Origin: a virus
Virus record (IMG/VR): IMGVR_UViG_3300014011_000001
Location: 1 to 42,718 of that record
Length of the DNA: 42,718 nucleotides
Reading direction: 5' to 3' (one strand)
Part shown: one piece after another, positions 1,773 to 42,718 of the stretch
Layout: each line of letters opens with the position of its first letter
Position numbering within the stretch: the first letter of the stretch is position 1
Made by a program: the position numbers and the translations under genes
Notes under the pieces: generated by a model
Database searches by the model: none
What the model was told of the DNA's origin: nothing
The model's input: only the letters and a program-made list of their open reading frames with translations

Positions 1773-1969
1773 TTGTTTGGACCTTATATCGTGGCGAACT
1801 TGTAGCTTTTGGAGAGTACAACAACGAAGAATTACTGCAGATGAAAAGGGAAGGTTGGAGAATTGCTTATTCAGTGGAATTAAAACTTCAACCAATCAAA
1901 AAAAGGCGCAAGCGTCATGGACAGAAAGTAGTCGGAGTGAATAAAAATGGCATACGAGTTATGCAATAA
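1769..1969 (+). CDS. Hypothetical small early protein (66 aa)
   Basis: ATG at 1769 preceded by GGAGG (1757-1761). ATGA overlap with the previous stop. Basic C-terminus KKRRKRHGQK. Confidence 0.5.
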   Translation: MIVWTLYRGELVAFGEYNNEELLQMKREGWRIAYSVELKLQPIKKRRKRHGQKVVGVNKNGIRVMQ

Positions 1970-2126
1970 ATGTTTTAACACAAAGTGGCTCATGAATGAA
2001 TTGAAATGTGATCTAAAGATAGCAACATACAGCAAGAATAAAGAACTATCGCTATTTGCACAGCAACTATTAAAGAATATTGGAGAGTACGAGAATGCCA
2101 GCTATTTCACTAAAACAAGCCGATAA
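1947..2126 (+). CDS. Possible 59-aa Cys-containing ORF (below the ORF-track cutoff)
   Basis: ATG 1947 preceded by GGAGTG at 7-nt spacing. Translates MAYELCNKCFNTKWLMNELKCD... It overlaps both neighbouring ORFs, so it is uncertain. Confidence 0.3.
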   Translation: MAYELCNKCFNTKWLMNELKCDLKIATYSKNKELSLFAQQLLKNIGEYENASYFTKTSR

Positions 2127-2280
2127 AATTTCAGGTTTTTTAAGACACCTGGAAGGAGCTGAATTTACAGATTGGCAATTCAGTGAGGATCGGACAGTAA
2201 TTAAAGCTCGTGATATTGAGGGCGATGTATACGAAATTACATTTATACCTAATCCAAAGGGAGGACAAGCCAATGAATAA
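2095..2280 (+). CDS. Hypothetical small early protein (61 aa)
   Basis: In-frame ATG 2095 preceded by GGAGAG. Co-directional with the operon. Confidence 0.45.
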   Translation: MPAISLKQADKISGFLRHLEGAEFTDWQFSEDRTVIKARDIEGDVYEITFIPNPKGGQANE

Positions 2281-2686
2281 TCAAACAAAAATCAATTTAG
2301 AAACTTTTGCAGGTGGCGCATTAGCTGAAAAAACAAATATTGAATTACAAAAAGTGATGGATAACATATTTGATCCAAACACAGATGCTACAAAAGCTCG
2401 TAAAGTAACAATTACTTTAACGCTAAAAGCAGATGAAAAACGTGAAATTATTGCAACCAATGTTGATACAAAATGCACGCTTGTAGCAGCTAAAGGTGTT
2501 GCTACAACAATGCTACTAGGTACTGATTCATCTGGAAAGGTGGTGGGACGAGAACTAGCAAGTGGATCACCTGGTCAAACTTACTTCGGTGATGATGGCA
2601 AGATACGAAATGATGAGGGTGAATTGCTAGAAGATGAAGTGAAAGTAGTTGAGGACACAGTAGTAAAGAAAGTCAAATTCCAATAA
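2273..2686 (+). CDS. Hypothetical early protein (137 aa)
   Basis: ATG 2273 preceded by GGAGG (about 2259). Starts MNNQTKINLETFAGG... No family recognised. Confidence 0.6.
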   Translation: MNNQTKINLETFAGGALAEKTNIELQKVMDNIFDPNTDATKARKVTITLTLKADEKREIIATNVDTKCTLVAAKGVATTMLLGTDSSGKVVGRELASGSPGQTYFGDDGKIRNDEGELLEDEVKVVEDTVVKKVKFQ

Positions 2687-2704
2687 AAGAAAAGAGGAAA
2701 CTAA

Positions 2705-3418
2705 ATGCTAACAGAATTTTTAAACAGATTATTAGAATTAAAACGACCTGAAACTGTAGATATTAAAGGCCAAACATTCAGTACTGAACGTTTGCATCTT
2801 ATTCCAGACAGCCCATCTGTAGATGCAATTGAAATCCACAGTTTAACAGGAGTCGTTGATTACATTAAATCGAATTTTGACAATCGTAGCAAGTTATTAA
2901 TTCATATCGAGTCGCCAACAAGATTGGAACTAATCGATTCACTAGATAGCACAAATAATCGCAGGGTGTTCCTAAAATCCAAAGCAATTTTACCTGAAAT
3001 CACCTTTGATCGCTTTGTAGATCGTGAGCATTTCCAAATTATGATGCAAGCAAATTTTGTTGAAACACCTGACAAAATCAAGGTGCTAGACATCATTAGT
3101 CATATACATGTTGACCAAGGTTCAGCCCAAGTAAAAGACAATGGATTAACTCAAACAGTTACTGTAAACGCAGGCGCAGCATCATTAAGTAATGAAACAT
3201 TACCAGAAAAAGTTATGTTAAAGCCATTCCGTACTTTTTCAGAAGTACCACAGCCACCATCTGATTACATTTTAAGATTAAACAATCAAGGAAATGTGGC
3301 TATTTTTGAGGCAGATGGTGGTTCATGGCAACTAGAAGCAATCGAAAACATTGCGGAGTTTTTCCAAAAAGAATTAACAGAAGAAATAGAAGCAAAAAAC
3401 ATTCACGTATTGCGTTAG
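2705..3418 (+). CDS. Hypothetical early protein (237 aa)
   Basis: RBS AAGAGGAAA before ATG 2705. Long uninterrupted ORF. No family recognised. Confidence 0.65.
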   Translation: MLTEFLNRLLELKRPETVDIKGQTFSTERLHLIPDSPSVDAIEIHSLTGVVDYIKSNFDNRSKLLIHIESPTRLELIDSLDSTNNRRVFLKSKAILPEITFDRFVDREHFQIMMQANFVETPDKIKVLDIISHIHVDQGSAQVKDNGLTQTVTVNAGAASLSNETLPEKVMLKPFRTFSEVPQPPSDYILRLNNQGNVAIFEADGGSWQLEAIENIAEFFQKELTEEIEAKNIHVLR

Positions 3419-3471
3419 AAACAAAGGGGCCGTATTATACGGCTCCCAATTTTTAAACAGGAGGTATAAAT

Positions 3472-3741
3472 GTGCGTTATTTTGAAGTAGTAGAGCCGTA
3501 CTATGCATTGCTAAAAGCTAAAAATCCAAGCAATGCAAAGGAAATGTATACAGAAAAATTCAAAGAAGTTACACCAATTACAGCTGATGAATTACTAGAA
3601 ATGAAAGAGGTACCAGTGGAGTACGCATCCATTGCTTTCAGCAGATCCTTAAATGACAAAGAAATACCGTTAGAAGCAATAGTGCAAAAGCTAACTAATC
3701 GTACTGAAGCAATTCTAACGATAGATGGTTGTGTTATATGA
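3472..3741 (+). CDS. Hypothetical protein (89 aa, GTG start)
   Basis: AGGAGG at 3459-3464 upstream of GTG 3472. Confidence 0.55.
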   Translation: MRYFEVVEPYYALLKAKNPSNAKEMYTEKFKEVTPITADELLEMKEVPVEYASIAFSRSLNDKEIPLEAIVQKLTNRTEAILTIDGCVI

Positions 3742-3862
3742 GACAAAATAAAAATAGCACACTAGGGCAAGTAGTGAGCTATCAATTCAAAAGTATTGTA
3801 ACGAGATTATTATAGCATTTAATCTTTTTATCACCAAATAGAAAAATTAAAGGGTGAACGAA

Positions 3863-4078
3863 ATGAAAAAGGACACATGGATATTAAAAGAACAGTTAGA
3901 CACGCCACTTTGTGATGTGTTTCCTGGAACAATAACAAATGGAACAGTTCGACAATGGGTTGTGATCACAGAATTTGTATTAGGTATTGCACCTGCCAAT
4001 TTAGATGTCATGAGCTATGAAGAGCTTAATAAATACGTTGATTCTTTGGATGAAAAGTTGAAGAGTTTAGAAAGCTGA
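3863..4078 (+). CDS. Hypothetical protein (71 aa)
   Basis: ATG 3863 with AAAGGGTGA upstream. The ORF track starts it at GTG 3854. Confidence 0.55.
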   Translation: MKKDTWILKEQLDTPLCDVFPGTITNGTVRQWVVITEFVLGIAPANLDVMSYEELNKYVDSLDEKLKSLES

Positions 4079-4151
4079 GGAGAACGTGTACATCGTACCA
4101 TTCAGCAAAAGTTAACTGCTAAAAAAAGAATGTCAGGGAGGTGTAACGTGC

Positions 4152-4328
4152 ATGGCAAGTCGCAATAAGCATAAAGTTCTTACTCGTTCTAATAAAAAGA
4201 CAATTATTCAGCATGGTGAACTCACACGCATTTTAAACGCGACAGAAATTGCACAATGGCATCACATTACTAATAAGATTGAACGCTTTGATGAAAAAGA
4301 AGAACAACGTTTAAAAATTACTCAATAA
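4152..4328 (+). CDS. Small ORF (58 aa) missing from the ORF track
   Basis: GGAGG at about 4136-4140, ATG 4152, translates MASRNKHKVLTRSNKKTIIQHGELTRILNATEIAQWHH..., stop TAA 4326-4328. It fills a gap otherwise covered only by an antisense ORF. Confidence 0.4.
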   Translation: MASRNKHKVLTRSNKKTIIQHGELTRILNATEIAQWHHITNKIERFDEKEEQRLKITQ

Positions 4329-4367
4329 TCATTTAGAACATTGTTCAATTCGAAGGGAGCAGAGTGA

Positions 4368-4544
4368 ATGTATTTTATAGCTGATGGAGAATTAACATCA
4401 AGAGGTGAATTTGTTTCTTCATACTCTAAAGGTGATGAAGTGAAAGTTTTAAAAGAAGAAGAGAACCTACTCCAAGTTGTAATTATGACAGGAAATTCTA
4501 AAGGCAAGGCCGCATACATTGACGCTAATTTAGTAAGTAAGTAA
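4368..4544 (+). CDS. Small ORF (58 aa) missing from the ORF track
   Basis: GAAGGGAG upstream of ATG 4368. Translates MYFIADGELTSRGEFVSSYSKGDEVKVLKEEENLLQVVIMTGNSKGKAAYIDANLVSK. Same strand as the whole early operon. Confidence 0.45.
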   Translation: MYFIADGELTSRGEFVSSYSKGDEVKVLKEEENLLQVVIMTGNSKGKAAYIDANLVSK

Positions 4545-4671
4545 TAAGTTATTCGACAGGCATTGTGCAGCATTGTTGATGCAGGTGATGAAATTTGGGC
4601 GATTATCACAACAGCTAAAAGATCATACACGCTAACAACAATTAATTTTGACTGAAAGGAGCCTTTAAATA

Positions 4672-4917
4672 ATGAGAATCTTATCAGAAATCATTGACGA
4701 TATGATTGAGGGGAAAATGCCAAGTCATGAAGAATGTTACTGGGCGTTACAAGCATACAGATTCATGCTAAATATGGACCATAGACAACTTAGAGAAGAA
4801 TTGCTAAGTGAATTTAGACAGCCAGAAGTCTTTCGCAAGATGAAAGCAGAGGCATCATTCGATATGTATAAAGGTGCTCTAAATGAATCACCTAAAGAAT
4901 GGTGTGGTGAACAGTAG
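4672..4917 (+). CDS. Hypothetical protein (81 aa)
   Basis: AAAGGAG RBS before ATG 4672. Confidence 0.6.
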   Translation: MRILSEIIDDMIEGKMPSHEECYWALQAYRFMLNMDHRQLREELLSEFRQPEVFRKMKAEASFDMYKGALNESPKEWCGEQ

Positions 4918-5111
4918 TGCAAACAGTAAAAATTTTGATCCAAGTTCTAGCTATTATGTATTGGATAGTTATGGGCCTATTGGTGTTATTTAAAATTTAT
5001 ACACCACCAAGCTACGTTATAGCAGCTGCTTTTATTTTAACAGGAATATCAATGGCCTTACTGATGTTCACTAGTGTTCCAATTACAAAAGTGCATATTC
5101 ACCATCATTGA
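4917..5111 (+). CDS. Small predicted membrane protein (64 aa, two hydrophobic helices)
   Basis: GTG start overlapping the previous stop (TAGTG). Sequence ILIQVLAIMYWIVMGLLVLF ... YVIAAAFILTGISMALLMF. Confidence 0.5.
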   Translation: MQTVKILIQVLAIMYWIVMGLLVLFKIYTPPSYVIAAAFILTGISMALLMFTSVPITKVHIHHH

Positions 5112-5149
5112 GAGTTAGTTGAAAGAAAATGTACAGGAGGACAATTAGT

Positions 5150-5299
5150 TTGTTGACATTCACTGAATGGTACAAGGTTGTGTATGACGACGAATGGACT
5201 GAAAACCATACTTTGATAACATCTACTTTATTGCGATTAGTGGAGGAGTACGAAAAATACTGTGAAATCAATGGATATGATCCTGTTTGGAACGGTTGA
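5150..5299 (+). CDS. Small ORF (49 aa, TTG start) missing from the ORF track
   Basis: AGGAGG at 5135-5140 and TTG 5150. Translates LLTFTEWYKVVYDDEWTENHTLITSTLLRLVEEYEKYCEINGYDPVWNG. Confidence 0.4.
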   Translation: MLTFTEWYKVVYDDEWTENHTLITSTLLRLVEEYEKYCEINGYDPVWNG

Positions 5300-5333
5300 A
5301 AGATATTGTTCAATACGAAGGGAGAAAAAATAA

Positions 5334-5663
5334 ATGGCAAATCAAACTGTAGGATTTAATTATCATGAAAAGGTAATCACAAATTATTGCAATAGAGCCT
5401 ACGAAATTGCGAAAAGTAAAGGGTGGCATGATGAAGAAAGAGAAACAGGTACTTTGTTAGCGTTAATCCATAGTGAAGTAAGCGAAGCATTAGAAGCAGA
5501 TCGTAAAGGCGATGCAGAAAATTTTGTTGAGGAATTAGCAGATGTATGTATCCGTATTTTCGATTTATGTGGTTCTCGTAACATTGATTTAGGAAAAGCT
5601 ATAGAGTCAAAAATGCTTAAAAATGAAGGTCGTTCATATAAACATGGTGGAAAAGCCTACTGA
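5334..5663 (+). CDS. MazG-like nucleotide pyrophosphohydrolase
   Basis: 109 aa with the metal-binding acidic helices HSEVSEALEA and FVEELADVCIRIFDL, typical of the all-alpha MazG NTP-PPase fold. RBS GAAGGGAG. Confidence 0.7.
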   Translation: MANQTVGFNYHEKVITNYCNRAYEIAKSKGWHDEERETGTLLALIHSEVSEALEADRKGDAENFVEELADVCIRIFDLCGSRNIDLGKAIESKMLKNEGRSYKHGGKAY

Positions 5664-5697
5664 ACAATATGAGGAAAAAACGAAAGGGAGTTATAAA

Positions 5698-5829
5698 GTG
5701 AGTGAAAATCTAAGTAGAGAAGAAATGCTTGCATACCTTGTGGCTTTTGGAAAATGTGCATCAGAATACTACACGCAACTTAATGATGATAGATTAAAAC
5801 AAGAGTATGAGGATACAAGAAACGCATAA
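5698..5829 (+). CDS. Small hypothetical ORF (43 aa, GTG start)
   Basis: AAAGGGAG upstream of GTG 5698. The longer track ORF (5623) would overlap the MazG-like gene. Confidence 0.4.
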   Translation: MSENLSREEMLAYLVAFGKCASEYYTQLNDDRLKQEYEDTRNA

Positions 5830-6387: not shown

Positions 6388-6849
6388 GTGGCAATGATAA
6401 TGATGATAGACATTTTACAGAACATCGATGGGAAAGCGACACAAGAAGAAATCGAAGCCACACTTAGGCAATACCGCACGTTCATGCTAACTACTCCAGA
6501 TGAATTCATGCCTTCCATAACGGCTAAATACACACTTGAAATGCCTACATTCTCCAATATAAAACAGTCAAGTGTGGAGATGGCAGCCATTAAAAGCGTA
6601 GATCATATTAAAGAATGCGAACGCTTTTTCACCTGGTTTAATCGTGGCTTATGCAAATTAACAGTAATCGAACGCAGGTTAATCACATTAGCATACTTAG
6701 AAATGGAACCCATGTACAACTATGAAATATGTACAGAATTAAATGTGTCTGAACGAAAGTTTTATCGTATGCGTACCACAGCATTGTATAAATTGGCGTT
6801 AGCTTTAGGGAAAGAAGTATACCAGGAGAACGAGGGGGTTGTGCAATGA
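6388..6849 (+). CDS. ArpU-family phage (late) transcriptional regulator
   Basis: About 150 aa. The C-terminal segment IERRLITLAYLEMEPMYNYEICTELNVSERKFYRMRTTALYKLALALG looks like a sigma-70 region-4 HTH, as in ArpU-type regulators. Located just upstream of the packaging genes. Exact start among 6388/6400/6403 is unclear. Confidence 0.7.
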   Translation: MAMIMMIDILQNIDGKATQEEIEATLRQYRTFMLTTPDEFMPSITAKYTLEMPTFSNIKQSSVEMAAIKSVDHIKECERFFTWFNRGLCKLTVIERRLITLAYLEMEPMYNYEICTELNVSERKFYRMRTTALYKLALALGKEVYQENEGVVQ

Positions 6850-7427
6850 ATTTCGTTCAACCGATTCGAGATATGGATAAAGTGGTGGACGTACAAGAAT
6901 TTCTGGCCAGTAAGAATAAAAGAGATGAATTATTATTCTGCTTTGGCATTTATACAGGATTACGCATAAGCGATATTCTCCGTGTAAAGAAGAGTGATGT
7001 GTACAATAAAGATGTCTTTTACGTTACAGAGATGAAAACAAAAAAGTCCAGGAAAAAAAGCCGAACAGTGATGAGTAAAACACGTATCATCATTGTTCCT
7101 GAACTAAAAAAAATGATTAGTGCCTATGGCAAAGAGTTAAGGGATGAAGAGTATTTATTCAAGTCAAGGCAAGGGAAAAACAAACCCATCACACGTGTAA
7201 GAGCCTATAACATTTTAAGGGAGGCAGCCCTTGCATGTGGGTTAAGTGAAATTGGTACCCATACATTAAGAAAAACATTTGGGTATCATATTTACATGGA
7301 TTCAAAAGATGTAGCTTTACTACAGGATATATTTGGCCATAGCTCAGAACACATTACATTACGTTATATAGGGGTCAACCAGGAGGCAAAGGATAATGCA
7401 CGTAGAAATTTACGCTTCAAACGATGA
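6846..7427 (+). CDS. Small tyrosine site-specific recombinase (catalytic domain only, 193 aa)
   Basis: Catalytic signature GLRISD (Arg), HTLRKTFGYH (His-x-x-Arg), GHSSEHITLRYIG (His...Tyr). No room for an N-terminal arm- or core-binding domain. Translationally coupled to the ArpU-like gene (ATGA overlap). Confidence 0.85.
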   Translation: MNFVQPIRDMDKVVDVQEFLASKNKRDELLFCFGIYTGLRISDILRVKKSDVYNKDVFYVTEMKTKKSRKKSRTVMSKTRIIIVPELKKMISAYGKELRDEEYLFKSRQGKNKPITRVRAYNILREAALACGLSEIGTHTLRKTFGYHIYMDSKDVALLQDIFGHSSEHITLRYIGVNQEAKDNARRNLRFKR

Positions 7428-32031: not shown

Positions 32032-32729
32032 GTTACAATATTGAGAAACGCTTAATGTCTGGATTACCAAACGCAAGATTAGAAGCTATTAAGTATATAA
32101 TTGCTCACGAATCAGGAAACCCAAACAATTGTGGTCCAAATGCTTTAGAAAACGAAATTGCATATATGAACCGAAATAAAGCAAATGCATTTACCTCTCA
32201 TTGGGTAGGCGATGGAGGGCGTATCGTGCAAATTGCGCCTGTTAATCGTGTACAGTATGGTTGTGGTCCAAAAGGTAATCCATTTAGCTATGCACAGGTA
32301 GAATTAGCAAGAACAAATGACAAAGAGCAATTCAAAAAGGATTATGCTGCTTATATTTGGTTGTTGAGAGAACTAGCAAAAGAGGCTGGAATACCTGTTG
32401 TATTAGATGGGGCAGGTAACGGTATTAAGTCACACCGTTGGATTACAGATAATCTTAAAGGCACAACACACAGAGATCCGTATTCGTATTTAGCGAGCAT
32501 GGGAATCTCCGAGTCACAATTCAAGCTAGACATTTTAAATGGCTTGGAGAAAGTAAAGGGGGCGCAAATTACAGAAGCGAAAGTTATGCTTAATGATACA
32601 AAAACTATTCCAGCAGTAATTATTGATGGTAGGACACACGTTCAAGTCCGTGAGTTAGCCGATCTTTTAGGATTAAAACTTGTGTATAACGATGAAAGTA
32701 AAACAACAAAATTGTATGAAGTAAAATGA
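32028..32729 (+). CDS. Endolysin: N-acetylmuramoyl-L-alanine amidase with a Cu-amine-oxidase-N-like C-terminal domain
   Basis: The N-terminal IIAHESGNP...SHWVGDGGRIVQIAP...AQVELA...SHRWI...THRDP resembles Amidase_2/PGRP-type lysins. The C-terminal VMLNDTKTIPAVIIDGRTHVQVRELADLLGLKLVYNDESKTTKLYE resembles the copper amine oxidase N-terminal (stalk) repeat. Confidence 0.8.
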   Translation: MSYNIEKRLMSGLPNARLEAIKYIIAHESGNPNNCGPNALENEIAYMNRNKANAFTSHWVGDGGRIVQIAPVNRVQYGCGPKGNPFSYAQVELARTNDKEQFKKDYAAYIWLLRELAKEAGIPVVLDGAGNGIKSHRWITDNLKGTTHRDPYSYLASMGISESQFKLDILNGLEKVKGAQITEAKVMLNDTKTIPAVIIDGRTHVQVRELADLLGLKLVYNDESKTTKLYEVK

Positions 32730-32734
32730 TAAAT

Positions 32735-32771
32735 GCCCAGGTACTCATTAATTTGAGCCTGGGCTTTTTTT
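32735..32771 (+). terminator. Rho-independent terminator after the lysis cassette
   Basis: GCCCAGG (32735-32741) pairs with CCTGGGC (32758-32764), plus an inner CTCA/TGAG pairing, followed by TTTTTTT. Confidence 0.75.
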
Positions 32772-32773
32772 GT

Positions 32774-33187
32774 TTATTGTTTATTTATAATTCCTAAGCG
32801 TTCCTTAATGGCGAACTGAAGTAATTGAGAAAAATTAATGTTTTCTTTTTCAGCAGCATCATTTAACCATTTAGGAATAGTTAAAGTTTTTTTAACTGCC
32901 TTATTTTCAATTTCATCTCTAATGTAATCCGTTCTTACCTCTATAATCGAGATAAAAGCTCCCTCAGGAAGTTCAATGCTGCTTGGATTTGATGCATCAG
33001 GAATTTCTTCTCCATCTTCCTCCATTCCATATAAGAAACCTACTAACACATCTTTGGCCATATATACGGCCTCATCCATATTAGAACCTTCTGTAATGCA
33101 TCCAGGTAAGTCAGGGAATGTTATTGTGAAACCTTGTTCATTGTCAGTACCTGGATCAAAAATTGCTGGAAAATAATATTTACCCAT
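32774..33187 (-). CDS. hicB: HicB-family antitoxin
   Basis: YYFPAIFDPGTDNEQGFTITFPDLPGCITEGSNMDEAVYMAKDVL is the HicB/UPF0150 fold. The C-terminal TLTIPKWLNDAAEKENINFSQLLQFAI is RHH-like. Confidence 0.9.
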   Translation of the reverse strand: MGKYYFPAIFDPGTDNEQGFTITFPDLPGCITEGSNMDEAVYMAKDVLVGFLYGMEEDGEEIPDASNPSSIELPEGAFISIIEVRTDYIRDEIENKAVKKTLTIPKWLNDAAEKENINFSQLLQFAIKERLGIINKQ

Positions 33188-33213: not shown

Positions 33214-33405
33214 CTATTTAAGTCCTGCCTGCTTTAGTATTGAGTTTGTAGTGCCTAGTTTAAGGTCTTTCTTTGGATGTGGAACTGTTACAGTTCCTTT
33301 TTTAGTAGGATGTTTAAAGTGATGATGACTTCCAACTGTCCTATGTAAATACCATCCATCTTTGTTAAGTATCTTGATTATTTCTCTTGACGATATATTT
33401 TTCAT
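33214..33405 (-). CDS. hicA: HicA-family mRNA interferase toxin
   Basis: 63 aa. SSREIIKILNKDGWYLHRTVGSHHHFKHPTKKGTVTVPHPKKDLKLGTTNSILKQAGL is a canonical HicA. Confidence 0.9.
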   Translation of the reverse strand: MKNISSREIIKILNKDGWYLHRTVGSHHHFKHPTKKGTVTVPHPKKDLKLGTTNSILKQAGLK

Positions 33406-33556: not shown

Positions 33557-34048
33557 ATGGTGAAAGCTTTGAATTGTCCCAACTGTGCTGCAGTATTTAA
33601 TCCAAGCAATAAATCATGTGAGTACTGTGGGAGTTATATTATTACTTCTGAAGCAAAGCAATTAACATATGATTTGAATGAGTTTAAGCCTACCTATAAA
33701 AAAATCTTTTTCCATGAAATAGAAATGGGTGCCAATGAGCTGCCGATCCGATCAGGTATGGCGAATATCTATTATAGTGCAACAAAATCTGATGGTGGCC
33801 GTTTGCTACTAACAAATCAACGTCTTATTTTTTGCGCTCATGCTCTAAACATCAATCCTAACCATTATTGGGAAATACAGATTAATGATATAGATCAGGC
33901 AGAACTAGGATTAAATCTTTTCATTTCTCAAAGAGTCAATATTTTTGATAGAACAAATATTAAAACCGTATTCGTAGTATACGGTGGCAAGCAATGGATA
34001 CATGAAATAAATAATGTCTTGAATAAAAGACCTGGAGCACTTATATAG
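33557..34048 (+). CDS. Zn-ribbon plus bacterial PH/GRAM-like (YokE-like) domain protein
   Basis: N-terminal CPNC...CEYCG zinc ribbon. The central GGRLLLTNQRLIFCAH resembles the bPH/YokE-like motif. AGGAG RBS lies 9 nt before ATG 33557. Confidence 0.6.
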   Translation: MVKALNCPNCAAVFNPSNKSCEYCGSYIITSEAKQLTYDLNEFKPTYKKIFFHEIEMGANELPIRSGMANIYYSATKSDGGRLLLTNQRLIFCAHALNINPNHYWEIQINDIDQAELGLNLFISQRVNIFDRTNIKTVFVVYGGKQWIHEINNVLNKRPGALI

Positions 34049-34066: not shown

Positions 34067-34687
34067 TTATTCTCTCCAATTCAAATCTATAAAGCTACTA
34101 ATAGCTTCTTTAATTCGATTCACTGGTGAACCTACTTCATCCACTACGTAGGCAAGCAAGGAAGCCCAAGAGTGATGAGATTCACCATTCTTATTTATAT
34201 ATCTCAAAATCTCTTTAAATTCTCTCATTTCCGATTCTGATAATTCATGTCGTAAGAATTCTTTTATATATGCATTTACAAATCGAGCCTCACTCATGCT
34301 AATTTCTAATAGAATTGCAGTTGCTCTTGATACTGTGCAATCTAGTGCAAAGGCCAATAAAGCAATCGCTGAATACTCACTTTGAGTAAAACGAATTGTA
34401 ACTCTTTCACCTGGTGCGTGTATACGTTTTTCAATTGTTTGATTAGTAACATGACCACGAAAAATGGTAGTGTCAAACAGCAAATCTCTTTTAAAAAATT
34501 GGGACAAGTATTCAATACTTTTTCTATCTTTAATGACCAGCATACAAAGCGATGGACAAACATCTTTAACGTGGGTGTATGTAATGTGCGATAAACGGTA
34601 AATTGCATCTTTTAAATCTAATTTTAGGGTAGGCTTTACATCACGTTTTTTATCTGAGCGTGGACCTCTTGCGCCCTTTTTTTCCAC
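34067..34687 (-). CDS. Hypothetical 206-aa protein with an HTH-like segment (GTG start)
   Basis: Long ORF with a basic N-terminus (KKGARGPRSDKKRDVKPT). LAFALDCTVSRATAILLEI looks like a helix-turn-helix. No family recognised. Confidence 0.55.
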   Translation of the reverse strand: MEKKGARGPRSDKKRDVKPTLKLDLKDAIYRLSHITYTHVKDVCPSLCMLVIKDRKSIEYLSQFFKRDLLFDTTIFRGHVTNQTIEKRIHAPGERVTIRFTQSEYSAIALLAFALDCTVSRATAILLEISMSEARFVNAYIKEFLRHELSESEMREFKEILRYINKNGESHHSWASLLAYVVDEVGSPVNRIKEAISSFIDLNWRE

Positions 34688-34971: not shown

Positions 34972-34983
34972 TTTTTTCGGTTC
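34948..34983 (-). terminator. Minus-strand rho-independent terminator
   Basis: 12-bp stem (34956-34967 with 34972-34983, one G-U), loop AUAA, followed on the minus strand by eight U (plus-strand A-run 34948-34955). Confidence 0.55.
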
Positions 34984-35052
34984 TAAAAATTAAAATGTTT
35001 TTAGTACAAATTAAACTTAAAAATTTGAATATGTTTAGAGAAAAAATAGTAC

Positions 35053-35117
35053 CTTTTTGTATTATAGAATTTATAAATATATAGAACTTTTTGTATTAGA
35101 GAATTTATAAATATATA
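35053..35117 (+). repeat. 31-nt direct repeat, two copies, 34-nt period
   Basis: CTTTTTGTATTATAGAATTTATAAATATATA (35053-35083) and CTTTTTGTATTAGAGAATTTATAAATATATA (35087-35117), with one mismatch. Confidence 0.9.
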
Positions 35118-35264
35118 AATCTATTTTTAAAAAGGATTTTATAGCAAAAATATAGAAAATAACTAGGCAAAAGATATATGTTTTTTTATAATTTAAAAAT
35201 AAATTTTAAAAAGAGTTATAATTAAGTTCTAAAGTGGATATAATACTTTCTTTTAATCTTAGAA

Positions 35265-35294
35265 TTGACAGATTGGTCATTTAAATGATAAACT
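35265..35294 (+). promoter_or_regulatory. Sigma-A-like promoter (TTGACA, 18-nt spacer, TGaTAAACT)
   Basis: TTGACA at 35265-35270 and extended -10 TGATAAACT at 35286-35294. Confidence 0.45.
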
Positions 35295-35312
35295 AACCAT
35301 AGTTCAAAAACT

Positions 35313-35344
35313 GTGTTGACAACACTTATTTTTTCTGTTATATT
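35313..35344 (+). promoter_or_regulatory. Strong sigma-A-like promoter with palindromic -35 region
   Basis: TTGACA 35316-35321, 17-nt spacer, extended -10 TGtTATATT (35336-35344). The -35 is embedded in the perfect 13-bp palindrome GTGTTGACAACAC (35313-35325). Confidence 0.6.
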
Positions 35345-35405
35345 AACAAACTCACTTTAGAGTTTTTTCTTAAATAAGTGTGTTAGAACATAAATTTGAA
35401 ACTTA

Positions 35406-35448
35406 TTTAGAATATATTTTAGAACTATATTTAGAATATATTTTAGAA
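35406..35448 (+). repeat. Four TTTAGAA direct repeats with an exact 12-nt period (two copies of a 23-24-nt unit)
   Basis: TTTAGAA at 35406, 35418, 35430 and 35442. The unit TATTTAGAATATATTTTAGAACT is repeated at 35404-35426 and 35428-35450. More TTAGAA(C/T) copies lie at 35259, 35383 and 36201, with an inverted copy at 35225. Confidence 0.9.
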
Positions 35449-35503
35449 CTTAATAATAGACTATATACTTTTTCTTTAACAATATAATTTATTATTAAGT
35501 TGT

Positions 35504-35540
35504 AAAAAAAGCCGATTAGTTACCTCCCAATAACTAATCG
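35504..35540 (-). terminator. Rho-independent terminator of the small membrane-protein gene
   Basis: Perfect 10-bp stem CGATTAGTTA/TAACTAATCG (35513-35522 with 35531-35540), followed on the minus strand by seven U (plus-strand A-run 35504-35510). Confidence 0.75.
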
Positions 35541-36309: not shown

Positions 36310-36432
36310 GTAGTGTATTTTGAAATAAATTGAATGTAAACGGATTACTGTATTCTATAAATCCATCGTTTTATGTACACGAAATGATAGACTATGAAAA
36401 TCTTACTCTGTGTCATATAAAAATAGCCAAAT

Positions 36433-36461
36433 TTGTCTTTTTACTCGTCCACACTTATAAT
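36433..36461 (+). promoter_or_regulatory. Promoter of the resolvase gene
   Basis: TTGTCT (36433-36438), 17-nt spacer, TATAAT (36456-36461), 40 nt upstream of the ATG. Confidence 0.5.
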
Positions 36462-36501
36462 TATATAAAACGTCTGAACGTAGACAGAAAAGAGGTATTT
36501 T

Positions 36502-37068
36502 ATGAGAATTATTGGATATGCCCGTGTCAGTACAGATGACCAAAATTTAGACATGCAACAAATGGCCATTGAAAAATACGCTACAGACAAAAAATTAGAC
36601 TTAGTTATGTATGTGGAGAAGGTATCCAGTAGGAATGACGAAAGAACAGAATTACATAATGCAATGAAAGCAGCAACTACAGGTGATCTTTTTGTTGTCT
36701 TTAAATTGGATCGGTTAGCACGTAGCACAAAGGAGTTGTATCAGCTAACTGACGAGTTAAAAAATAAAAAAGTGGACTTTGTTAGTATTAATGATGCATT
36801 TGACACATCAACGCCAACTGGACGTGCTATGTTCGGCATGCTAGCTGTATTCGCCGAGTTTGAAAGGGATATTATTCAACAACGTACAAAGGCAGGATTA
36901 GAGGCAGCAAGGAAGCGTGGACGTATTGGTGGTCGCCCTTCAGTAGATGAGAAAACAAAACGGCACATCATCACCCTTTTTAATGCTGGAGAAAGTGCAG
37001 TTGATATTGCGAAGGAATTTGGAATTGCTCGCAGTACTGTGTATAAAATCTTAAAAAATAGCAATTAA
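36502..37068 (+). CDS. Small serine recombinase (resolvase/invertase family)
   Basis: MRIIGYARVSTDDQNLDMQ with the catalytic Ser. VFKLDRLARS, FAEFERDIIQQRTKAGL, and the C-terminal HTH SAVDIAKEFGIARSTVYKIL. 188 aa. Confidence 0.95.
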   Translation: MRIIGYARVSTDDQNLDMQQMAIEKYATDKKLDLVMYVEKVSSRNDERTELHNAMKAATTGDLFVVFKLDRLARSTKELYQLTDELKNKKVDFVSINDAFDTSTPTGRAMFGMLAVFAEFERDIIQQRTKAGLEAARKRGRIGGRPSVDEKTKRHIITLFNAGESAVDIAKEFGIARSTVYKILKNSN

Positions 37069-37071
37069 GGT

Positions 37072-37080
37072 TGTGGATAA
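37072..37080 (-). promoter_or_regulatory. Consensus DnaA box (TTATCCACA on the minus strand)
   Basis: The plus strand reads TGTGGATAA, a perfect 9-mer. Confidence 0.6.
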
Positions 37081-37101
37081 CTATTTTTTTACTATTTTTC
37101 C

Positions 37102-37130
37102 TTGCAAAACTTATCCACAAAGTTTATCAT
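37102..37130 (+). promoter_or_regulatory. Putative rep promoter
   Basis: TTGCAA (37102-37107), 17-nt spacer, TATCAT (37125-37130). Would give a leader of about 290 nt. Confidence 0.4.
37111..37119 (+). promoter_or_regulatory. Consensus DnaA box (TTATCCACA)
   Basis: Perfect 9-mer, 30 nt from the inverted partner, inside the spacer of the putative rep promoter. An A-rich tract follows. Confidence 0.6.
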
Positions 37131-37162
37131 TCTATTTAACAAATAAATGAACGGAAAAAAGC

Positions 37163-37268
37163 AAAAAAAAAGAAATCGAGCTTCACAGCTAATTTGAAGG
37201 GACGGCAATCCCTAAAAACGCTCGACTCGATTTCCCAACCATGTGTTTACGCCACATCGGTTTGATAC
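37163..37268 (-). ncRNA. Candidate countertranscript (antisense RNA) to the rep leader
   Basis: Minus-strand terminator: closing stem GAAATCGAG/CTCGATTTC (37172-37180 with 37226-37234) encloses sub-hairpins CTTCA/TGAAG and AGGGA/TCCCT and is followed by nine U (plus-strand A-run 37163-37171). No minus-strand gene nearby could use it. The 5' end is uncertain: best -10 is TATAAT at 37280-37275 with a poor -35. Confidence 0.35.
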
Positions 37269-37311
37269 GCTTATATTATATGTTATTGAGCATAAATGCA
37301 ACCATTTTGGC

Positions 37312-37333
37312 ACAAATAATTTATATTATTTGT
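37312..37333. promoter_or_regulatory. Perfect 9-4-9 inverted repeat in the rep leader
   Basis: ACAAATAAT-ttat-ATTATTTGT. Could be an operator or an RNA hairpin. Confidence 0.5.
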
Positions 37334-37356
37334 CAAAAGCATTTTCATGGCATTAA

Positions 37357-37405
37357 AGCATCTATCAACCTTTGACAACACATTGGTCTGATAGATGCTT
37401 TTTTC
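37357..37405 (+). terminator. Intrinsic terminator immediately upstream of the rep RBS (attenuator candidate)
   Basis: Perfect 11-bp stem AGCATCTATCA/TGATAGATGCT (37357-37367 with 37389-37399), followed by TTTTTTC. The RBS AAAAGGAG and ATG 37429 follow within 25 nt. Confidence 0.7.
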
Positions 37406-37428
37406 GTTTCCAAAAGGAGCGAATACAT

Positions 37429-38208
37429 ATGACATTGCCAGCAACTCATTATACATATCAATATCTACAACCCTTCAAATCTAAAGAGCAATTAAACGCA
37501 AATACAATTGCCATCCGTAAACAATTCAACGATATTTTTAAACCTGCCACAAAGAAAGTTTTAGATTTCTTACATACTCATGCATGTAAATTTTTTGGGG
37601 TATGTTACATGTCAAAAAGCAAAATTGCCAAACAACTAGAATTACATCGATCCACAGTGATACGTGCTTGTGAACAATTAGAGGCATTAGGCATTATTGT
37701 TCAGTACGATACAAAACGTGTGAATGGTGATAAAAGACAGTCTACGAATGCGATTGTTTTTGTGCATCAATTAGCAGCTAAAGAAGCTTTTATAGAAAAT
37801 GCGACACCAGAATGCGACACCGTAGATACTCTTTTAGATACTCCTATTCTTTTAAATAATACAGATGACACAGAAGAACCTGCTAAAAAAGAAGTTGAAA
37901 AATCGCTTTTAAAAGAAGGACTAAAAGCGAAACTACCTGAAACATTGGGTCAAGTATTATCACCATTTTTTGATGCTAATGAAATGTATGAAGTGGTTGG
38001 TACGATTTATAAAGCCAAAGCATCTGTAGATAAAGGAATTAGAATTGAGGATCATGCAAGTGTCTATTATACAAACATTCTTTCAGTCATAAATGCCTGG
38101 GGACGTGGGAAAGCAAAATCACTTCATGGAGTTATGTATAAAGCTATCCAAAATGTTACTCGTACCATTTGGTTAAAAGAGCGAACTAATTCTTATTTCG
38201 GTTTTTAA
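37429..38208 (+). CDS. Plasmid-type replication initiator candidate (winged-HTH protein, 259 aa)
   Basis: ATG 37429 after AAAAGGAG. wHTH-like MSKSKIAKQLELHRSTVIRACEQLEALGIIVQYDTKR. Context: DnaA boxes upstream, partition genes downstream. Family not identified by eye. Confidence 0.6.
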   Translation: MTLPATHYTYQYLQPFKSKEQLNANTIAIRKQFNDIFKPATKKVLDFLHTHACKFFGVCYMSKSKIAKQLELHRSTVIRACEQLEALGIIVQYDTKRVNGDKRQSTNAIVFVHQLAAKEAFIENATPECDTVDTLLDTPILLNNTDDTEEPAKKEVEKSLLKEGLKAKLPETLGQVLSPFFDANEMYEVVGTIYKAKASVDKGIRIEDHASVYYTNILSVINAWGRGKAKSLHGVMYKAIQNVTRTIWLKERTNSYFGF

Positions 38209-38212
38209 TTCA

Positions 38213-38362
38213 AAATGAAGGCATAATAACTTCATTTCAAGAATATATATTAAAAATGATATACATATACTTTCAAAATGAAAGCAAAATGATTTCATTT
38301 TAGCTGTACATTTTAATTTTGTTGGTATATAATTTCATTATGAAAGCAAAATGATTTCATTT
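38213..38362. repeat. Three AATGAA-N-TTCATT palindromic repeats upstream of parM (centromere/operator candidate)
   Basis: AAATGAAGGCATAATAACTTCATTT (38213-38237). The exact 23-mer ATGAAAGCAAAATGATTTCATTT occurs at 38278-38300 and 38340-38362. A TATAAT (38328-38333) lies between copies. Confidence 0.7.
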
Positions 38363-38375
38363 AGGAGGAATAAGA

Positions 38376-39566
38376 ATGAAGTACAGATTAGCTGCAGATG
38401 TAGGAAACTCATCAACAAAAGCTATTATTAGACCACTGGATGACAATGCTAAACCAAAAGCATTAAAGCAAAAAACGTTAATATCTCCAAGTATTACAGT
38501 ACCACCAATGGTTGAAGAAGATTTAGAAACATCAATCAATAATCTTACAAACAACATGATCGTTCATATCAACAGCAAGGCTTTAAAAAGAGCTAGTACA
38601 TTTGCTGTTGGTGAAAAAGCAACATCCGTAGGACGAGTAAAACGCAATATGAACATTGCTATTGGCGATAAACATACAAATGATATACCTGTTGTTATGG
38701 TACTGTCTCTAATAGCATCTAAAGCAGTTCAAGATCACTACAGCATAAATAAGACACTTCCAAAAGATATTGATGTATCTGTGGAGTATTCTACAGCTTT
38801 GCCAGCTCGTGAGTATGATCCTTCAGTTGCACGAGTGTATGAACAACGTTTACTGGAAGAAGTACACATTGTTGATATTTATGTAAATGGAACACCTGTG
38901 ACTGTGCGTGTGAATTTTGAAAAAGTAAAAGTTGCACAAGAGGGTGTGCCTGCTGTATATGCGATAATCGAAGGCGGAGAAAAGTTGTTGTCTGAATACC
39001 ACAATAAATATGGTAGTAAGTCCGCCAACAAGGACTTTGAAAAGAAGAAACTATTACTTGTTGATATTGGTGATGGCACAACTGAATTTATTTATGTAGC
39101 TAGTGGTAAACCGATAAACGATTTATGTGATGGAAAACGTTTTGGAGTAGGTCATGCAGCTGATGTAGCTAAAAATCTGTTTGATGAAGATGTAAAAGTG
39201 CAAATTACAATGACTCGTCAACAATTTATGCAAGTTGTACTTGATAAAGAGCACCATTTCCACGATGCAGCCGTAGATGCTATGAATCAAGCTAACGTAG
39301 AGCAAGCTGAGTTAATCTTAGAACAAATTCAAGACATGGTTTTAAATACGCTATCTGGTAATGTGGATGACATTGTTGTATTTGGTGGTGGATCGGCTGC
39401 GTTTAAAGAAGATATGTATCAAACGCTAATCGAGTTCACAGAGTCAGTGGGAGCACGTACATTATGGATTCCAGAAGATAAAGCACCATCATTAAACGCA
39501 ATTGGATTGGATATTCTAAATGAAAAAGTGTTTTTCAAGGGAGTTGTAGTAGGTAATGGAGAATAG
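38376..39566 (+). CDS. parM: Actin-like plasmid segregation ATPase (ParM/Alp family)
   Basis: Actin-fold motifs: phosphate-1 LAADVGNSSTK, phosphate-2 LLLVDIGDGTTEF, adenosine IVVFGGGSA. 396 aa. GGAGG RBS. Confidence 0.85.
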   Translation: MKYRLAADVGNSSTKAIIRPLDDNAKPKALKQKTLISPSITVPPMVEEDLETSINNLTNNMIVHINSKALKRASTFAVGEKATSVGRVKRNMNIAIGDKHTNDIPVVMVLSLIASKAVQDHYSINKTLPKDIDVSVEYSTALPAREYDPSVARVYEQRLLEEVHIVDIYVNGTPVTVRVNFEKVKVAQEGVPAVYAIIEGGEKLLSEYHNKYGSKSANKDFEKKKLLLVDIGDGTTEFIYVASGKPINDLCDGKRFGVGHAADVAKNLFDEDVKVQITMTRQQFMQVVLDKEHHFHDAAVDAMNQANVEQAELILEQIQDMVLNTLSGNVDDIVVFGGGSAAFKEDMYQTLIEFTESVGARTLWIPEDKAPSLNAIGLDILNEKVFFKGVVVGNGE

Positions 39567-39903
39567 AAAATTAGTTTCTTGGCGATTAGAAAAACTAGAT
39601 AAGAAACAACAAGATACTATTAATGCTTGGCTAAACGCCCAACAAAACATTCAATTATCACTTACTAATGTAGTACAACATATGATTGATCGGCACGGTA
39701 TTACAGACATTATGAACTATGATGTTCAAAAGTCGCTATACACAAATCCAGACGCAATTGCTGTTGAAAAAACAGTCAAATCAGAAGTTCAAATATCTGA
39801 AGAGAAAGAAACTATTTCTCCTAAATCTGAACAAAACGTTCAGGTAGCATCTAAAGATAACAATGATGATGATTTATATGATGAATTGAATAATGTACTG
39901 TAA
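39556..39903 (+). CDS. Probable partition adaptor (ParR/AlpR position)
   Basis: 115-aa ORF overlapping the parM 3' end, with an acidic C-terminal tail (NNDDDLYDELNNVL). Assigned by synteny only. Confidence 0.5.
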   Translation: MENRKLVSWRLEKLDKKQQDTINAWLNAQQNIQLSLTNVVQHMIDRHGITDIMNYDVQKSLYTNPDAIAVEKTVKSEVQISEEKETISPKSEQNVQVASKDNNDDDLYDELNNVL

Positions 39904-40549: not shown

Positions 40550-41191
40550 TTAATCTAAATTCACTATATAGGTTACTACTTTTCCATGGATCTGTAAATG
40601 ACTTACTTCTTCTAAGCTAACAACATAGTCTGAAAATATCGGGTCCGTTGAATCTGGCCTAAATATAATTTTATCTTCATAACGGTACATTCGTTTGACT
40701 GAATACTCTTGATCGTTACTAAATACAACTATATCGCCATTTTTAATGTCATTAAGTTCAATCTTTTTAACAGCAATTAACGTTTGATTAGGTAAAACTT
40801 TATTCATTGACTCTCCATTTACTTTCATGAAGAAAATCTTTTTACATCCAGCCCATTTTCCTAACAATACATCTGGTATTTCAATACTTTCAATATTTTC
40901 AACACCATCAATTGTAAAAGGATTACCTGCTGCTACAGGAACAGGGATAAATCCATATGATGTTGAAGGCTGTTTAACAGTTTCTTCTTCATCCCAACCT
41001 AAAAGGTATGAAGGTGATACATTCAATGCTTTAGAAATAGGTAATATGATGTCATAAGGCATATTTTCAATTTCATCACTTTCATACCTATAAACAGTGG
41101 CTCTATTCTTACCTATCATTTCACCTAGTTTATCTGCAGACATCTTAATTTGTTTTCTTCTTTTCTTAATTCTGCTACCTACAGTTTCCAT
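40550..41191 (-). CDS. CI-like prophage repressor (XRE HTH plus S24 LexA-like autopeptidase)
   Basis: N-terminal HTH MSADKLGEMIGKNRATVYRYE. Ala-Gly cleavage site in PVAAGNPF. Catalytic Ser in VNGESM and Lys in YSVKRMY. Confidence 0.9.
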   Translation of the reverse strand: METVGSRIKKRRKQIKMSADKLGEMIGKNRATVYRYESDEIENMPYDIILPISKALNVSPSYLLGWDEEETVKQPSTSYGFIPVPVAAGNPFTIDGVENIESIEIPDVLLGKWAGCKKIFFMKVNGESMNKVLPNQTLIAVKKIELNDIKNGDIVVFSNDQEYSVKRMYRYEDKIIFRPDSTDPIFSDYVVSLEEVSHLQIHGKVVTYIVNLD

Positions 41192-41860: not shown

Positions 41861-42670
41861 ATGAATTTACTAATCAACGAGCCTCCACTTCAAGTCCTAC
41901 CTAGCCTAGCAGTTAAGGTTGGGCTGAATGAGGCAATCATCTTACAGCAACTGCACTACAGGCTGTTGATCTCAACAAATATTTATGATGGCCATAAATG
42001 GGTGTTTAATACATACCAAAAATGGCATAAGGAGTTCCCTTTTTTATCTGAACGAACAATACAAAGAGTCTTTTTGGATCTTGAAGCAGATGGCTATATT
42101 GTCTCAACAGATAAATACAACAAATTTCGTGCAGATAAAACAAAATGGTACCGAATTGACTATTCAAAACTTGGTTATGAAGCCACACGACAAGTTGGCA
42201 CTAGCGACACGACAAATTGGCATGAGGGAAATGCCAAAAAGGCCTGCCCTGATGACGCAAATTTGGCAGAGCTAGATCACGACAAATCGGCACTAGCAAT
42301 AACCAAAGATATTAAGAGTAATAAGAATAATAATGTTGAGTTGTCACTCAACGTTGAAATTATTAACTACTTAAATCAAAAAGCGAATAAACATTTCAAG
42401 CCAAATTCAACTGCTACAAAAAAACTTATCAACGCAAGATTGCGTGATGGCTATACCATGGAGCAATTTAAACAAGTCATTGATCTAAAAGTAAAGCAGT
42501 GGTCAAACAATCCAGATATGCAGAACTATTTACGACCAAGCACTTTGTTCAATGCCACTAATTTTGAAAATTACTGTAATGAGGTGCCAATAAAGCAATC
42601 AAGTAATACCCAAGTACAAACATCCAAGTTACAACGACCACAACTTAATTTTGGAGTGGATGATGAATGA
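41861..42670 (+). CDS. Phage replication organizer / DnaD-domain protein
   Basis: N-terminal LPSLAVKVGLNEAIILQQLHYRL plus wHTH. The C-terminal INYLNQKANKHFKPNSTATKKLINARLRDGYTMEQFKQVIDLKVKQWSNNPDMQNYLRPSTLFNATNFENY is the conserved DnaD-like phage C-terminal domain. The stop overlaps the helicase start. Confidence 0.8.
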   Translation: MNLLINEPPLQVLPSLAVKVGLNEAIILQQLHYRLLISTNIYDGHKWVFNTYQKWHKEFPFLSERTIQRVFLDLEADGYIVSTDKYNKFRADKTKWYRIDYSKLGYEATRQVGTSDTTNWHEGNAKKACPDDANLAELDHDKSALAITKDIKSNKNNNVELSLNVEIINYLNQKANKHFKPNSTATKKLINARLRDGYTMEQFKQVIDLKVKQWSNNPDMQNYLRPSTLFNATNFENYCNEVPIKQSSNTQVQTSKLQRPQLNFGVDDE

Positions 42671-42718
42671 ATCAAGATATTAGCATGGAGCTCATTGAGA
42701 AAAGCATCTTGGCAACAA
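42612..42718. repeat. Second copy of the 107-bp terminal duplication (identical to 1-107); 42667-42718 repeats the 5' end of the helicase gene
   Basis: Base-by-base identity with the window start. Confidence 0.95.

Follow-up and report, generated by a model that had tools for sequence, protein, structure and literature searches.

The DNA analysed here is a viral contig of 42,718 nucleotides (IMG/VR record IMGVR_UViG_3300014011_000001), and "the window" refers throughout to this whole stretch. It is the genome of a tailed phage of Lysinibacillus that bears a gene for an actin-like partition protein, ParM; the window has about 36% G+C and nearly all of its long open reading frames (ORFs) lie on the same strand. 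Between the lysis genes and the immunity region sits a maintenance island of about 7 kb (32.8–40.0 kb), which brings together a toxin–antitoxin pair, a small serine recombinase, a structured non-coding element, a winged-helix protein and a partition locus. A first-pass annotation, made from the sequence without database searches, had drawn this island at 36433–39903; the parts it listed are present, but its extent was too short, the left end reaching the HicAB pair at 32774. The features on which the argument turns are these:

1–107, no strand assigned: terminal duplication, an exact 107-bp overlap identical to 42612–42718
32774–33187, minus strand: HicB-like antitoxin at the left end of the island (PHROG 497 'toxin-antitoxin system HicB-like', 1.6e-41)
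33214–33405, minus strand: HicA toxin (PHROG 353 'toxin', 2.9e-26; Pfam HicA_toxin on the identical gene in relative L003)
36502–37068, plus strand: small serine recombinase of the resolvase/invertase family, 188 aa (Pfam Resolvase 5.9e-46, HTH_7 1.1e-10; PHROG 125, 2e-64)
37053–37435, plus strand: conserved structured non-coding element between the recombinase and winged-helix genes, from conservation and folding
37429–38208, plus strand: winged-helix (HTH_36) protein, 259 aa, candidate plasmid-mode replication initiator (Pfam HTH_36 2.1e-8)
38202–38362, no strand assigned: centromere-like (parC-like) repeats, three 36-bp units, each containing an imperfect palindrome, at a spacing of 62–63 bp
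38376–39566, plus strand: actin-like partition ATPase of the ParM/Alp superfamily, 396 aa, from Pfam, PHROG and plasmid homologues
39556–39903, plus strand: ParR-like adaptor, 115 aa, overlapping the parM stop codon, with homologues downstream of parM

Circular genome, partition locus and plasmid relative

The first and last 107 bases of the window are identical, so it represents a circle with a true length of 42,611 bp. Across the junction the Phg_2220_C gene leads directly into dnaB, as it does in the Lysinibacillus plasmid pFN9E and in an independent assembly, a Logan contig of 42,300 bp from run SRR1750019. That contig carries the exact ParM protein, is continuous through the window's ends and has its own break elsewhere, between the amidase gene and hicB; it is thus a permuted version of the same circle, and the circular closure put forward at first holds on both counts. 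The break in the Logan contig corresponds to 32544–32855 (amidase 3′ end to hicB 3′ end), where about 311 bp are missing; candidate causes are a repeat common to another prophage, a sequence variant or low coverage.

Close protein relatives of the window's proteins all come from Lysinibacillus. Its genes for morphogenesis, packaging and lysis, named by homology to the annotated pFN9E and by Pfam matches, comprise terminase, portal, protease, capsid, sheath, tube, tape measure, baseplate V/W/J/I, fibre, holin and amidase. Judged by this gene content, the window represents a whole, circular genome of a temperate phage with a contractile tail. It had been described as a complete temperate myovirus with no full-size integrase, and so it appears: the gene set is complete and no ORF resembles such an integrase. 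A megablast search of a phage collection returned no DNA-level match for the island or the structural genes.

The ParM protein matches Pfam MreB-like_C at 4e-9 (37.6 bits, cut-off 27.8) and lies just below the cut-off for ALP_N (1.4e-5; 25.8 bits, cut-off 26.3), and its PHROG match is 'partition protein' (1.6e-22). Annotated ParM/StbA proteins from plasmids of Geobacillus/Parageobacillus share 42% identity with it across 96% of its length, and those of Bacillus plasmids share 38–41%; its translation shows the actin-fold nucleotide-binding motifs DVGNSSTK, VDIGDGTTE and FGGGSA. Family, PHROG and plasmid matches thus agree with the original call of an actin-like ParM. A search of PDB sequences gave only a marginal actin-like match (CorM, E 0.032). 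Membership of ParM and its adaptor in the Alp7A/Alp7R group was considered and rejected, neither protein having significant pairwise similarity.

The adaptor is 44% identical to the product of the small gene after parM on Parageobacillus pNCI002 and 37% identical to that on a B. subtilis plasmid. In fifteen homologues the N-terminal 65 aa and an acidic C-terminal DLYxxL motif are conserved and the linker between them varies, the layout expected of a ParR-type adaptor. The three repeats flank a promoter-like site (38305–38333) upstream of parM; relative L008 has its three repeats in the same arrangement, and the homologous parM genes of plasmids are preceded by other repeat arrays. Both the adaptor and the palindromic repeats that had been noticed are therefore present, but no family match to the adaptor, ParR included, emerged from Pfam, NCBIfam or PHROGs. 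The ParM–adaptor pair is co-conserved on non-phage plasmids, including conjugative and mobilisable ones. Together, ParM, the adaptor and the upstream repeats probably form a type II (ParMRC) partition system, in which the repeats are candidate binding sites. At the other end of the island, hicA and hicB are adjacent and lie directly past the amidase gene, as a HicAB type II toxin–antitoxin pair.

The genes for phage replication, immunity and the only tyrosine recombinase lie outside the island:

56–1348, plus strand: DnaB-type replicative helicase (Pfam DnaB_C 9.5e-85)
6846–7427, plus strand: short tyrosine recombinase, 193 aa, catalytic domain only (Pfam Phage_integrase 4.6e-25)
40550–41191, minus strand: LexA/CI-type cleavable repressor for phage immunity, right border of the island (Pfam HTH_3 2.3e-8, Peptidase_S24 4.2e-14)
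41861–42670, plus strand: phage replication initiator/organiser, Phg_2220_C with a DnaD-like N-terminus (Pfam 1.1e-31; PHROG 428 'replication initiation protein', 2.5e-55)

The Phg_2220_C/DnaD-like gene and the DnaB helicase clearly form a phage replication module across the circular junction, and here the Pfam and PHROG matches bear out the phage-type module of DnaD-like organizer and DnaB recognized in the first-pass annotation. The 193-aa tyrosine recombinase, the only one in the window as had been stated, is encoded between ArpU-like regulator and terminase genes, and the arginine, histidine and tyrosine motifs of its catalytic domain are readable in alignments. It shares 83% identity with its pFN9E counterpart and 42% (E 4e-48) with a 'site-specific integrase' of 189 aa encoded by the conjugative plasmid pLS20; because this homologue is on a conjugative plasmid, the family is not tied to chromosomal integration. 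An Xer-type gene likewise lies beside the terminase genes of phage B83 (PMC6669507, PMC11526630). Among the window's ORFs there is no full-size integrase and no recombinase longer than 193 aa, those above 260 aa being known structural or replication genes only, and neither tRNA genes nor any att-like feature were found in the window.

A relative of similar build has been deposited as a plasmid. In the finished genome of Lysinibacillus capsici FN9, pFN9E (NZ_CP106867.1) is a closed circular plasmid of 43,589 bp, for which the NCBI annotation gives terminase, portal, protease, capsid, sheath, tube, tape measure, baseplate V/W/J/I, holin and amidase as well as an XRE-type repressor, a DnaD-like protein, a DnaB helicase, an ArpU-like regulator and a short tyrosine recombinase. 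It shares the window's gene order, island position and nearly its size, and the 380-bp control region is 90% identical; tail, baseplate and replication proteins are mostly 85–100% identical and head and packaging proteins 50–83%, so that over the phage proteins as a whole most reach 80–100% and a few 50–75%. The island genes, by contrast, have been replaced: the recombinase is 33% identical, the winged-helix protein about 21–25%, and ParM and the adaptor have no detectable similarity. HicAB is absent from pFN9E, and a few small early ORFs of the window have no counterpart there.

Circular closure, a permuted second assembly, the deposition of pFN9E as a plasmid and the lack of any recombinase longer than 193 aa give the phage-plasmid reading good support. 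We put at roughly 70% the probability that this temperate Lysinibacillus phage lysogenises as an autonomous circular plasmid, and not by integration, with the island in the roles proposed below; the window element itself would then be episomal. By the phage-plasmid criteria of Pfeifer et al. 2021, the window has the phage gene set, and its plasmid-type genes are present through ParM, with a replication gene that is initiator-like.

In the life cycle that we propose, HicAB would kill or arrest cells that lose the element, and the small serine recombinase would resolve multimers, its probable target lying within the 150 bp that precede the recombinase gene. Transcription from a promoter that overlaps one DnaA box would enter a highly structured leader closed off by an intrinsic terminator immediately ahead of the winged-helix gene; in this way the gene would be expressed at a low, regulated level, with DnaA and an antisense transcript as possible regulators. 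The winged-helix (HTH_36) protein, as the candidate initiator, would start plasmid-mode replication; ParM, the ParR-like adaptor and the three repeats would carry out type II (actin-like) partition and would repress their own promoter too. Lytic replication would proceed through the separate DnaD-like initiator and DnaB helicase. We infer the activities of the island proteins, the initiator role of the winged-helix protein and its control by attenuation or antisense RNA from sequence.

The 380-bp element and the winged-helix gene

The non-coding element between the recombinase and winged-helix genes contains four smaller features:

37072–37080, minus strand: perfect DnaA box TTATCCACA, from a motif search
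37111–37119, plus strand: perfect DnaA box TTATCCACA, from a motif search, in the spacer of the promoter-like TTGCAA-17-TATCAT (37102–37130)
37171–37235, minus strand: long hairpin (−25.6 kcal/mol, z −2.5), followed on the minus strand only by a T-run (37155–37170)
37355–37410, plus strand: strong terminator-like hairpin and T-run, candidate attenuator (−22.2 kcal/mol, z −7.5)

The two DnaA boxes are the window's sole perfect ones, 30 bp apart and in inverted orientation. Their number is by itself weak evidence: shuffled windows hold a mean of 0.45 boxes, and 11 of 100 shuffles hold at least two. The pair is credible because it is clustered in one intergenic region and invariant in seven elements (the window, pFN9E, a second Lysinibacillus plasmid, pFN9C, and four contigs assembled from metagenomes, viromes and read archives), and on this basis the two consensus boxes first pointed out can be retained.

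Across the same seven elements, mean column identity over 37053–37435 is 91%. When the island was compared with plasmids by megablast, the match was limited to about 370 bp of this spacer; in the flanks, the recombinases of the window and of pFN9E and pFN9C are 30–34% identical, the winged-helix proteins are about 20% identical, and the ParM proteins have no detectable similarity. Homology of the element begins and ends exactly at the gene borders. The leader within it folds with a z-score of −6.4 against shuffles, and four base pairs show compensatory changes. The stem of the hairpin at 37171–37235 is invariant in the seven elements, and the hairpin is terminator-like for a possible antisense transcript. 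The terminator hairpin proper (37355–37401) sits about 20 nt 5′ of the winged-helix start codon and has one compensatory pair in relative L010. Searches for the element elsewhere gave little: Rfam had no match at E ≤ 1 over 34.6–40.6 kb, a distant blastn search matched pFN9C and pFN9E only, and a search with its 22-nt core in one genome per species returned solely a chance 22-nt match in Vagococcus.

An attenuated leader together with DnaA boxes is typical of the DNA upstream of rep genes, as in the pT181, pIP501 and P1 replicons. By analogy, our reading of 37053–37435 is that it may act as a regulated, attenuated leader for the winged-helix gene, with a logic like that of rep control in pT181, pIP501 and pSK41. 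It may have an origin function as well. A further step, for which we see a minor chance, would make the 380-bp element an undescribed, portable replication-control unit: a DnaA-box-gated promoter with an attenuated structured leader and perhaps an antisense RNA, perhaps also a host-DnaA-dependent origin, used with unrelated winged-helix genes and providing the homologous 'linker' by which myovirus and siphovirus phage-plasmids of Lysinibacillus swap their cassettes for recombinase, initiator and partition. The element is the new and most distinctive result of this work, offering a concrete candidate origin or copy-control RNA in bacteria whose plasmid replication is poorly described.

What the gene behind this leader does is a closer call, and we give the winged-helix protein roughly even odds, or slightly better, of being a replication initiator. 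Its best PHROG (1835; full length, 5e-40) has no named function, and all seven of the weaker named matches are replication-initiator or helicase-loader families. An AlphaFold2 (AF2) model (pLDDT 80) has a winged helix-turn-helix, a disordered linker and a helical C-terminal domain, and its matches in a viral structure library, at low TM-scores, include replication protein O (lambda O-like), replication protein C, a replisome organiser and Phg_2220_C. Homologues are the sole Rep candidates on small plasmids, with 40% identity on a 10-kb Sporosarcina plasmid and 28% on 8.5-kb Priestia plasmids; the paper on plasmid pA38H2 does not name its Rep gene. Among 91 homologues, the close ones are mostly on stand-alone contigs of 33–67 kb. 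Proteins with the HTH_36 domain have been described as initiating replication in the REP modules of several Paracoccus plasmids (PMC3832669).

Several observations weigh against an initiator. In Pfam and NCBIfam the protein matches no curated Rep family (RepA_N, Rep_3 or others), so the profile search that had been proposed for 37429–38208 yielded HTH_36, generic HTH families and weak initiator PHROGs but not the Rep family sought. Its family profile matches only MarR/SlyA/CodY-type regulators in the PDB, a Foldseek search of the PDB with the model returns generic (MarR-type) winged helices at low TM-scores, and a PDB sequence search gave nothing significant; the modelled structure does not settle the question. 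A homologue with 42% identity lies at the edge of an integrated prophage on a 4.5-Mb Viridibacillus contig, others follow the lysis genes of related phages on contigs of 620 kb and 991 kb, and others again, annotated as regulators, occur in Gamma/Wbeta-type phages of B. anthracis, which are integrating phages. In addition, pFN9C and pFN9E reside in one strain with winged-helix proteins that are 92% identical and control regions that are about 93% identical, which is unexpected if the protein and its control region determine replication incompatibility. The antisense arm of the control scheme is affected too, as candidate antisense promoters are weak sites only (9 of 12 matches), none of them convincing. 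For the partition locus, a ribbon-helix-helix fold of the adaptor was not confirmed, its AlphaFold model (pLDDT 54) being too poor for searching.

The strongest competitor to our proposal therefore keeps the phage-plasmid and drops the second initiator. Under it, the element replicates by one system only: the winged-helix protein would regulate transcription, acting for instance on the par operon or on lysogeny, and plasmid replication would proceed through low-level DnaD-like/DnaB activity or through host DnaA at the conserved element. The regulator-type folds, the missing Rep family, the homologues in integrating phages and the co-resident pair all sit well with this view, as does a control region that stays unchanged before winged-helix genes only about 20% identical. 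Set against it are the seven initiator or loader families, the viral fold matches to O-like and replisome-organiser proteins, the homologues on the small Sporosarcina and Priestia plasmids and, in front of the gene, DnaA boxes and a probably tightly attenuated leader of the kind typical of rep genes. We regard this alternative as less probable than a dedicated initiator, though it deserves to be taken seriously. Of the two replication modules originally suggested, then, the lytic DnaD-like/DnaB module stands and the plasmid-mode initiator is not established, the gene being only initiator-like.

Three smaller observations concern the same gene. On the Viridibacillus chromosome (L005, 6427–10816) the homologue adjoins FtsK/SpoIIIE and Replic_Relax genes, a hint that the family has a role in integrated or transfer-related elements too. 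BLASTP showed no paralogy between Phg_2220_C and the winged-helix protein. Iterons within the winged-helix gene were sought and set aside, as the two short repeats present (an 11-mer and a 14-mer, each ×2) are too weak for an origin.

Module exchange, integration and known systems

Comparison of the relatives indicates that the island is assembled from exchangeable parts. In a table of module types, the recombinase, winged-helix and ParMR types assort independently. One relative (L012) joins a window-type recombinase (97%) to winged-helix and ParMR genes of the pFN9C type (98–100%); pFN9E and pFN9C have the same winged-helix type and unrelated ParM proteins; and a 55.8-kb L. xylanilyticus contig, from a different contractile-tail phage, combines a window-like winged-helix protein (55%) with a pFN9C-like ParM (46%). 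As pFN9C (NZ_CP106865.1) is a TP901-1-type long-tailed phage, a siphovirus phage-plasmid with the same island type, this independent assortment means that the island moves between unrelated virion types. Conserved phage genes with variable plasmid genes are the published pattern for phage-plasmids, and the shuffling of the island fits it (PMC7969092). The pFN9C unit also encodes a 328-aa tyrosine recombinase. Its 93.8-kb record is a head-to-tail dimer of a unit of about 46.9 kb, in which the same protein accessions recur at a distance of about 46.45 kb; this dimer may be genuine or may have arisen in assembly.

Two findings count against a purely episomal lineage: identical tail-tube proteins occur on contigs longer than 1 Mb, and related phages lie at the ends of the 620-kb and 991-kb contigs. 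The lineage therefore has integrated members, and the window element may itself integrate under some conditions. Taken further, these findings would make it an ordinary integrating or pseudolysogenic phage, its circular contig being virion or replicative DNA and its actin-like protein serving to position phage DNA or to manipulate the host. Terminally redundant or induced phage DNA would also be expected to assemble as a circle, the window does encode a tyrosine recombinase, and Pfeifer et al. warn that the partition homologues of some Bacillus phages may have other functions (PMC7969092). This is nevertheless improbable in our view, given the lack of a full-size integrase, tRNA or att-like feature in the window, the status of pFN9E and pFN9C as plasmids in a finished genome, the clustering of toxin–antitoxin, resolvase and ParM with adaptor and repeats, and the homology of the ParM–adaptor pair to pairs on conjugative and mobilisable plasmids. 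Moreover, an integrated relative (L034) has neither ParM nor the recombinase at the island position. In this relative and in L035, from the 620-kb and 991-kb contigs (1901–5725 in each), the tape-measure gene appears to be split by a GIY-YIG endonuclease ORF (212 aa, GIY-YIG 351–356 aa, 602–605 aa), which suggests insertion of a homing endonuclease or an intron.

A plasmid lifestyle built around ParM has precedents among Bacillus relatives, of which the Lysinibacillus element is a well-supported further example. The Bacillus cereus-group plasmid prophages IEBH, Bp8p-C and B83 (BMBtp14) are temperate tailed phages that exist as circular plasmids and, like the window, encode a ParM-like partition protein with a small downstream adaptor, small site-specific recombinases and a separate Rep-like gene (PMC6669507, PMC11526630); the IEBH community has 83 elements (PMC7969092). 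Unlike the window, they are siphoviruses of another genus with Xer-type tyrosine recombinases in place of a serine resolvase, and B83 has a RepA-like initiator. The ParM of BMBtp14 is 21% identical to that of the window, and there is no DNA similarity.

The clearest parallel in logic is P1, a contractile-tail temperate phage kept as a low-copy plasmid, in which plasmid and lytic replication functions are separate and which has DnaA boxes at its plasmid origin, active partition, a dimer-resolution recombinase and an addiction module. P1 is twice the size, however, and its ParABS (Walker type), Cre/lox and iteron-binding RepA have no homologues in the window. In the pSK41 and pSK1 regions of staphylococci, a RepA_N initiator with antisense RNA control is combined with ParMR or par and a Res/Sin serine resolvase. 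The window resembles these in its serine resolvase, a rep candidate behind an attenuated leader and type II partition with adaptor and repeats; it differs in having no RepA_N match, in an antisense control that we infer, in its host genus and in the placement of the island inside a phage. The window resembles Alp7A/Alp7R of Bacillus subtilis pLS20 in that the genes for an actin-like partition protein and for the small adaptor that follows it adjoin the origin, here a candidate one, but its ParM belongs to another Alp family, found on plasmids of Geobacillus, B. thuringiensis, B. pumilus and B. subtilis.

Our literature search found no paper on Lysinibacillus phage-plasmids. The window element, with pFN9E and pFN9C, which are filed as plasmids, indicates that Lysinibacillus hosts them. 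Phage-plasmids carry genes from phages to plasmids and back and frequently bear the wrong label in databases, and the comparison made here provides a natural case of 'conserved phage genes, variable plasmid genes' in which co-resident elements differ in their ParM systems.

The serine recombinase and remaining island features

Three further features complete the island:

34067–34687, minus strand: conserved island gene, 206 aa, without a match in Pfam, NCBIfam or PHROGs
34972–35510, no strand assigned: very A+T-rich repeat region (15–25% GC) with 34-bp (×2–3) and 24-bp (×2.3) tandem repeats
36351–36501, plus strand: region co-inherited with the recombinase gene, candidate res site, from homology borders and a promoter scan

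The serine recombinase has an N-terminal catalytic domain with the motif YARVSTDDQ and a C-terminal helix-turn-helix, and its Pfam Resolvase and HTH_7 matches confirm the resolvase-type recombinase named in the first-pass annotation. Homology to all relatives with a window-type recombinase begins at 36351–36358, so that the 150 bp before the gene travel with it; this region contains a promoter-like TTGTCT-17-TATAAT, inverted GTCTAC/GTAGAC motifs and blocks conserved in the alignment, and is a candidate resolution (res) site. That the enzyme is instead a DNA invertase flipping a switch, like Cin of P1 or Gin of Mu, is suggested by the 'DNA invertase' label of its best PHROG (2e-64) and a weak NCBIfam match to Mpi-family invertases (76 bits), but is unlikely: the Mpi score is far under the 272-bit cut-off, no well-complementary inverted repeats of at least 22 nt flank a segment near the gene, no alternative tail-fibre end lies on the opposite strand, relatives are collinear over the island without inverted segments, and the gene has rep and par as neighbours, like the resolvase genes of staphylococcal and Inc18 plasmids.

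Some remaining features are shared with relatives and others are not. The A+T-rich region could be an origin or a regulatory region; its sequence is not kept among relatives, which have different, partly equally A+T-rich DNA at the same place. Two strong promoter-like sites lie within it. Within the Phg_2220_C/DnaD-like gene, a 22-bp direct repeat (×1.9, 90% match) at 42181–42222 is a candidate lytic origin inside the initiator gene, as in lambda. The 206-aa gene is absent from pFN9E and 85–90% identical in L008, L010, L011, L012 and pFN9C, where it always adjoins the recombinase; a protein 50% identical to its product is encoded by a different Lysinibacillus phage-plasmid, near maintenance genes there too. 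Next to it, a 163-aa protein (33557–34048) without a family match has an N-terminal zinc-ribbon-like CPNC...CEYC motif and is about 91–94% identical in pFN9E (over 126 aa), L010 and L011.

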